Below, piece after piece: positions 42,418 through 42,725 of a stretch of 64,000 nucleotides of DNA; within the stretch, counting starts at the first letter, position 1, and every line of letters starts with the position of its first letter. The translations under genes and the position numbers were made by a program. The stretch lies in NCBI RefSeq assembly GCF_016026235.1, contig NZ_CP065613.1. One strand, given 5' to 3'. The stretch comes from Escherichia coli (GTDB lineage Bacteria > Pseudomonadota > Gammaproteobacteria > Enterobacterales > Enterobacteriaceae). The notes beneath the pieces were generated by a model. That model was not told the origin of the DNA and made no database searches. It was given only the letters and a program-made list of their open reading frames with translations.

Positions 42418-42494
42418 TGGTTGCGGGGGCCGGATTTGAACCGACGACCTTCGGGTTATGAGCCCGACGAGCTACCAGGCTGCTCCACCCCGCG
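42418..42494 (-). tRNA. metV: tRNA-fMet (initiator, anticodon CAT), copy 1 of 3
   Basis: Reverse-complement is CGCGGGGTGGAGCAGCCTGGTAGCTCGTCGGGCTCATAACCCGAAGGTCGTCGGTTCAAATCCGGCCCCCGCAACCA. Assignment of metZ/metW/metV to individual copies is by order only. Confidence 0.95.
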
Positions 42495-42528
42495 TCACCG
42501 TACTGCTTTTACTTCATCAAATTTTGAT

Positions 42529-42605
42529 TGGTTGCGGGGGCCGGATTTGAACCGACGACCTTCGGGTTATGAGCCCGACGAGCTACCAGACTGCTCCACC
42601 CCGCG
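42529..42605 (-). tRNA. metW: tRNA-fMet (initiator), copy 2 of 3; D-loop variant
   Basis: Same as the flanking copies except one substitution (GCAGTCTGG versus GCAGCCTGG in RNA sense). Confidence 0.95.
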
Positions 42606-42648
42606 TCACCGTACTGCTTTACTTCATCAAATTTTAATTGGTTGCGGG

Positions 42649-42725
42649 GGCCGGATTTGAACCGACGACCTTCGGGTTATGAGCCCGACGAGCTACCAGG
42701 CTGCTCCACCCCGCGTCCGTGGATG
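42649..42725 (-). tRNA. metZ: tRNA-fMet (initiator), copy 3 of 3
   Basis: Identical to copy 1; copies separated by about 34-43-bp spacers. Confidence 0.95.

Follow-up and report, generated by a model that had tools for sequence, protein, structure and literature searches.

Escherichia coli K-12 carries the genes of tRNAfMet1, its major initiator tRNA, in the metZ-metW-metV operon (b2814-b2816). The promoter of this operon, its start site and down-mutations of its -10 element have been described (PMC3017606). A second locus, metY, lies between argG and nusA and encodes tRNAfMet2, which has A46 in place of m7G46; this natural single-base isoform exists beside the major species and has no function of its own (PMC3017606). 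Levels of initiator tRNA track the gene copy number, and a deletion of metY, or even of metZWV, is viable (PMC3017606).

The identity elements of initiator tRNA are the C1xA72 mismatch, the pairs 2:71, 3:70 and 4:69, A73, the pair 11:24, three G:C pairs and the CAU anticodon. The determinants for MetRS, for formyltransferase, for IF3 and the P-site, and for avoidance of EF-Tu and PTH are located in the anticodon, the acceptor stem, the 11:24 pair and the G:C pairs of the anticodon stem. The D-arm of tRNAfMet is a recognition element of EF-P that it has in common with tRNAPro, with a 9-nt D-loop and a stable 4-bp D-stem (PMC4890201).

We analyzed an initiator tRNA array in a stretch of 64,000 nucleotides of an E. 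coli genome (contig NZ_CP065613.1 of assembly GCF_016026235.1), which is referred to below as the window. The array is the metZ-metW-metV operon of E. coli, with mltA on one side and amiC on the other. This identification relies on the amiC and mltA flanks, which are arranged as in K-12, on the promoter and leader, which are identical to those of K-12, and on the presence of three tRNA-Met(CAT) genes. The middle gene differs from the other two by a single base in the D-loop. We conclude that this is very probably a genuine point mutation, recent and effectively neutral, in a set of about four initiator genes that are redundant with each other. The features of the locus are as follows, in the order of transcription of the array, with the two neighboring genes at the end.

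42760-42767, minus strand: A8 tract that precedes the -35 hexamer (from the sequence)
42751-42756, minus strand: -35 hexamer TTGCAT of the metZWV promoter (from the sequence and identity to K-12 MG1655)
42729-42734, minus strand: -10 hexamer TATAGT, separated from the -35 hexamer by a 16-nt spacer (from the sequence; identical in 7 of 7 aligned strains)
42728-42716, minus strand: GC-rich discriminator and leader GCGCATCCACGGA (from the sequence; the same as in K-12)
42639-42715, minus strand: copy 1, metZ position, canonical tRNAfMet1 gene (ARAGORN; Rfam tRNA, 61.4 bits)
42606-42638, minus strand: spacer 1, 33 nt (AUUAAAAUUUGAUGAAGUAAAGCAGUACGGUGA), the same as the first spacer of K-12
42529-42605, minus strand: copy 2, metW position, tRNAfMet gene with C16 changed to U in the D-loop (alignment; Rfam tRNA, 63.0 bits)
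42495-42528, minus strand: spacer 2, 34 nt (AUCAAAAUUUGAUGAAGUAAAAGCAGUACGGUGA), found in the same 34-nt form in strain 100416
42418-42494, minus strand: copy 3, metV position, canonical tRNAfMet1 gene (ARAGORN, alignment and Rfam)
42382-42411, minus strand: intrinsic terminator, a hairpin (42411-42392) followed by a U-run (terminator scan)
41091-42344, plus strand: amiC, convergent downstream neighbor (ORF end at 42344; start estimated from the 1,254-nt length of amiC)
42924-44021, plus strand: mltA, divergent upstream neighbor (ORF end at 44021; start estimated from an ATG and the 1,098-nt length)

The annotation of amiC and mltA was transferred from E. coli FDAARGOS_943 and K-12. The promoter was assigned from its identity to K-12 and from the literature. 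A scan for consensus promoters in the window did not call the metZWV promoter, because TTGCAT matches TTGACA at only three of six positions. According to a seven-strain alignment, the promoter and leader are unchanged relative to K-12 MG1655, and the sequence of the -10 element and leader agrees with the knockout primer "gagtatagtgcgcatccacgga" (PMC3017606).

Three tRNA-Met(CAT) genes were found by ARAGORN on the minus strand, transcribed from 42715 to 42418. Their Rfam tRNA (RF00005) scores are 61.4, 63.0 and 61.4 bits, all above the gathering score of 29, and a direct-repeat finder gives a unit spacing of 110/111 nt. ARAGORN, Rfam and the repeat finder thus agree with the initial annotation in describing three 77-nt initiator tRNA genes in direct repeat. 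That annotation placed the array at 42418-42725. The array does lie there, but 42725 is already 10 nt inside the 5' leader, and the genes are on the minus strand.

A three-way alignment in RNA sense has 76 invariant columns out of 77. The sole difference is at position 16, where the D-loop AGCCUGGUA becomes AGUCUGGUA in the middle copy (C16 to T in DNA, U in RNA; plus-strand position 42590), exactly the one C-to-U change in the middle D-loop that had been reported. The spacers do differ slightly, as had also been noted: they have 33 and 34 nt and are distinguished by one substitution and one extra A. Some Rfam matches to YrlA span two adjacent tRNAs; at 27-28 bits they are far below the gathering score of 69, and we ascribe them to the tRNA-like module.

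Copies 1 and 3 are identical to K-12 metZ, metW and metV. In K-12 the three gene copies are identical to each other, whereas here the middle copy deviates at position 16. This is a departure at the level of an allele, and the locus stays in the metZWV family. It shares with the K-12 operon the mltA and amiC flanks, the promoter, the leader, the three tandem 77-nt genes and the first spacer. Besides C16U it differs from K-12 in the second spacer, which has 34 nt instead of 33 nt, and in the terminator hairpin, where two bases deviate and one of the two is found in the window strain alone. The K-12 metY isoform is of another kind: it concerns position 46 of the variable loop rather than position 16 of the D-loop, lies at the argG-nusA locus and is much commoner.

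All features that mark an initiator tRNA are retained in the three copies. Each has the CAU anticodon (cat at position 35, ARAGORN) and the C1xA72 mismatch, with C1 opposite an A before ACCA and the pair 1-72 marked as non-canonical by cmscan. The sequence UCGGGCUCAUAACCCGA is present in all three, and its stem is predicted to be paired. G10 A11 G12 C13 and G22 C23 U24 C25 are invariant, so that A11:U24 (purine 11 with pyrimidine 24) is present. CGCGGGG and CCCCGCA are invariant too, including the formylation determinants G2:C71 and C3:G70. The D-loop has 9 nt and the stable 4-bp D-stem is unchanged in all copies. All of them have G46 (linear position 47), which is the tRNAfMet1 type, and an encoded CCA end.

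We suggest the following scheme. One sigma-70 promoter of the stringent type would drive a transcript with three tandem tRNA(fMet1) genes; the transcript would stop at the intrinsic terminator facing amiC, and its processing would release three mature tRNAs whose CCA ends are encoded. The middle gene has a C-to-T transition on the RNA-sense strand at position 16 of the tRNA, which belongs to the variable segment of the D-loop; the cloverleaf, the 9-nt size of the D-loop and the known identity elements are all preserved. Should the genes be expressed in proportion to their dosage, about one quarter of the initiator tRNAs would contain U16, provided that the usual fourth gene, metY, is present outside the window. 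U16 would then probably be reduced to dihydrouridine by DusC.

The initial annotation had pointed out that the variant could matter for translation initiation. The data do not support this. Position 16 is outside the known initiator identity elements. The cloverleaf and the minimum free energy of -30.3 kcal/mol are predicted to be the same for the C16 and U16 copies, and the Rfam tRNA score of the U16 copy is the higher one (63.0 against 61.4 bits). A 43-nt U16 core, from the acceptor stem through the anticodon arm, was found at more than 120 loci among the matches listed, from many phyla; its carriers among these matches include Pseudomonas, Marinobacter, Bdellovibrio, Bacillus, Faecalibacterium, Geobacter and actinobacteria. 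Two Pseudomonas loci, in Pseudomonas trivialis and Pseudomonas sp. ok272, are identical to the variant copy at 77 of 77 positions; in those bacteria U16 is the only or the standard state, and here it is limited to a minority copy. U16 is the native base at this position of initiator tRNAs in many bacterial phyla.

Experimental data are available for a closely related D-loop. Katoh et al. introduced C16U, among other single changes of the loop, into the virtually identical D-loop of tRNAPro1 and observed in vitro that translation and its stimulation by EF-P were unaffected; the features on which these depended were the D-stem and the size of the loop alone (PMC4890201). These in vitro data concern tRNAPro and not tRNAfMet. 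In the initiator, C16U is most likely neutral in vivo. In E. coli U16 is the substrate position of DusC, which makes D16 (PMC5814906). If the specificity of DusC extends to this tRNA, the product of the U16 copy would probably have D16 as well as D20.

A comparison with alleles across E. coli genomes, which the initial annotation had proposed, was carried out on 5,426 complete genome records. The exact 77-nt C16U sequence is present in five of them (~0.1%), which carry it in three gene slots. In ETEC H10407, and in SEC470, which duplicates that record, it is found in metY, between argG and rimP; ABW_A32 and XJ6.2 have it in the third array copy (metV); and the unrelated strain 24A16CRGN010 has it in the middle copy (metW), with flanking alleles and a downstream neighbor that differ from those of the window. 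All these copies have the same 77-nt sequence as copy 2 of the window, although they occupy other gene slots or have other flanking alleles. Because of these differences in slot or flanks, the distribution implies at least four independent origins of C16U, the window included. Among the complete E. coli genomes there is no exact match to the 451-nt region that contains the array, the best match being 99.3% identical. Between 1 and 8 initiator genes are present per genome (median 4). C16U is a rare allele that was already present in public genomes and has apparently never been discussed.

To place C16U among other initiator variants, we searched with megablast using concatenated probes of 28-40 nt, each centered on one variant (Sprinzl numbering) and designed so that they contained no wild-type 28-mer; matches could thus be seeded by variant carriers alone. 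The survey covered all substitutions at D-arm positions 8-25 and, elsewhere, transitions only. Its results for the D-arm are listed below.

Any D-arm variant: 244 of 5,426 genomes (~4.5%)
C17U: 125 genomes
C17A (CFT073, Nissle 1917, ATCC 25922 and relatives): about 82 genomes (244 − 37 − 125)
G15A: 8 genomes or records
G18U: 8 genomes or records
G22A: 8 genomes or records
C16U: 5 genomes or records
U17a to C: 2 genomes or records
U17a to A: 2 genomes or records
G18A, C13U, C25A and A11G: 1 genome or record each

No variants were found by the D-arm probes in the 5,426 genomes at the tertiary-pair positions U8, A14, G19 and A21. Transitions outside the D-arm were found in a further 87 genomes, most frequently C68U, which gives a G5·U68 wobble pair. 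The A46 allele of the K-12 type is far commoner: a probe set that included A46 matched 452 genomes. A single non-canonical initiator copy is therefore commonplace in E. coli, and C16U belongs to the rarer forms. Genome scans that score "tRNA variants" should expect single-copy polymorphisms of initiator genes, and such variants should not be over-interpreted.

The CCUGG of the D-loop is a Dcm site (CCTGG) in DNA, and the D-arm variants are concentrated there. C17 is the inner, Dcm-methylated cytosine of CCTGG, which is a classic hotspot of deamination, and the abundance of C17U fits deamination at this base. C16 is the outer, unmethylated cytosine. As a mutation, C16U is an ordinary C-to-T transition; it affects the non-template strand of a gene with a very high level of transcription, and C to T is the commonest class of mutations. 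Thornlow et al. reportedly found raised mutation rates in tRNA genes of eukaryotes and ascribed them to transcription-associated mutagenesis; a similar process might be supposed for C16U, only by analogy with the eukaryotic data. The frequency of C16U is ~0.1%, against 1.5-2.3% for the variants of the neighboring C17, which could be a sign that C16U is not strictly neutral but under mild purifying selection.

Whether the change is a natural allele or a sequencing error had been left undecided in the initial annotation. The closest available genome is that of FDAARGOS_943 (NZ_CP065615.1), which is ~99.95% identical to the window over 58 kb. There are 27 substitution differences between the two and no indels outside the array; one of the 27, at 42636, is an alignment artefact of a missing repeat unit. 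When polarised against K-12, 15 of the differences are derived in the window and 12 in FDAARGOS_943, and their spectrum is normal and rich in transitions. Three of the 27 fall at CCWGG sites. As a separate observation, two of the differences, at 28346 and 33213, exchange A and T in the middle of a CCWGG Dcm site; each genome has the derived base at one of the two.

An error of sequencing, polishing or assembly, or a mutation acquired in culture, would mean that the G-to-A change at 42590 (plus strand) is spurious or recent and that the three copies are really identical. A few circumstances would agree with this: C16U is private to the window relative to FDAARGOS_943 and rare overall, the site belongs to a 110-nt tandem repeat and also to a Dcm site (CCTGG), and another private change, at 42399, is only 190 nt from it. 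The Dcm-site context (CCTGG) troubles some nanopore basecallers. However, a collapsed or mis-polished repeat cannot create a base that is absent from all of its copies. The differences from FDAARGOS_943 show no clustering at CCWGG (3 of 27), indels in homopolymers are absent among them, and the 15:12 ratio of derived SNPs is what real divergence predicts. An identical substitution is also present in independent assemblies, including the reference record of ETEC H10407. A nanopore artefact due to Dcm was considered separately and rejected: C16 is unmethylated, CCWGG sites are not overrepresented among the SNPs that separate the window from its nearest relative, and no indels occur. Of the two possibilities that had been raised, we therefore favor a natural allele, because independent assemblies share the substitution and the SNPs are symmetrical and free of indels, as a clean assembly would give; an error is improbable.

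The change at 42399 affects the terminator stem. It is a G-to-A change in RNA sense, private to the window, that shortens the stem; the hairpin is predicted to have -7.6 kcal/mol in the window against -11.1 kcal/mol for the alleles of K-12 and FDAARGOS_943. The 42399 allele was found in none of the 5,426 complete E. coli genomes with two probes. The first probe was possibly affected by low-complexity masking; the second, which avoided the A-run, was equally negative. Positions 42399 and 42590 are two window-derived SNPs in ~400 bp, against 15 in 58.5 kb overall. We regard this local surplus of derived SNPs at the operon as mild, and it was noticed post hoc.

The array of FDAARGOS_943 (L001 4419-4606, corresponding to 42418-42715 of the window) has two copies, both canonical, separated by a spacer that, like the second one in the window, has 34 nt. 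The number of copies thus shifts through unequal recombination even among nearly identical strains, which here differ by one unit.

Less probable even than an error is that the U16 initiator, possibly modified to D16, is a distinct isoform under selection, so that its recurrence is adaptive parallelism. Its advantage might then lie in elbow flexibility, growth in the cold, interplay with EF-P or initiation factors, or sensitivity to tRNA-targeting toxins. The variant has indeed recurred in at least four lineages and in three gene slots, it would create a new substrate site for DusC, and the D-arm of tRNAfMet is a recognition element of EF-P. On the other hand, the variant has a frequency of only ~0.1% with no clonal expansion visible, and other D-loop changes are as frequent or more so, which fits mutation with relaxed constraint. 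C to T is the commonest mutation class, and raised mutation rates are reported for tRNA genes in eukaryotes. C16U left the response of tRNAPro to EF-P unchanged, and no more than one of about four genes is changed. A more specific version, in which recurrent C16U gives an isoform modifiable by DusC to D16, with altered elbow dynamics and an advantage only under conditions such as cold or tRNA-targeting stress, is just as doubtful.

It is hardly credible that redundancy has allowed the middle copy to decay into a partly inactive gene: redundancy is real (metY or metZWV can be deleted, PMC3017606) and apparently damaged copies exist in E. coli, for example one gene with both G18U and C68U, but here the change affects a non-conserved loop position, the tRNA model score rises with the fold kept, and the resulting sequence is the wild-type initiator of some Pseudomonas.

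The combination of G18U and C68U in one initiator copy was observed at 3133789-3133867 of NZ_CP010148.1 (strain D6), and likewise in G3X16-2, Ec387, ET826, PSJ-42 and YZ3-11. Such a copy may be a degenerating gene, because G18 normally pairs with Psi55.

We return to the reading of C16U as a neutral natural allele. The array of the window is a textbook metZWV operon, and the variant, a rare allele at a tolerant loop position, matters little for the window.

Two further observations concern the rest of the window. The tas-ygdR intergenic region contains a 1.4-kb insertion (17161-18588) relative to FDAARGOS_943 and K-12, which encodes a transposase of the IS4 family (448-aa ORF, NF033592, E=1.5e-90). 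The first part of the window (1-4070) contains a fragment of xdhA, actS/ygeR (2081-2860) and glyU, a tRNA-Gly(CCC) gene (2939-3012). After glyU there is an IS1 remnant (about 3300-4070), followed directly by the yqeF/yqeG region. Other strains have the ETT2 type III secretion island at this place, and in the window it therefore appears to have been deleted.
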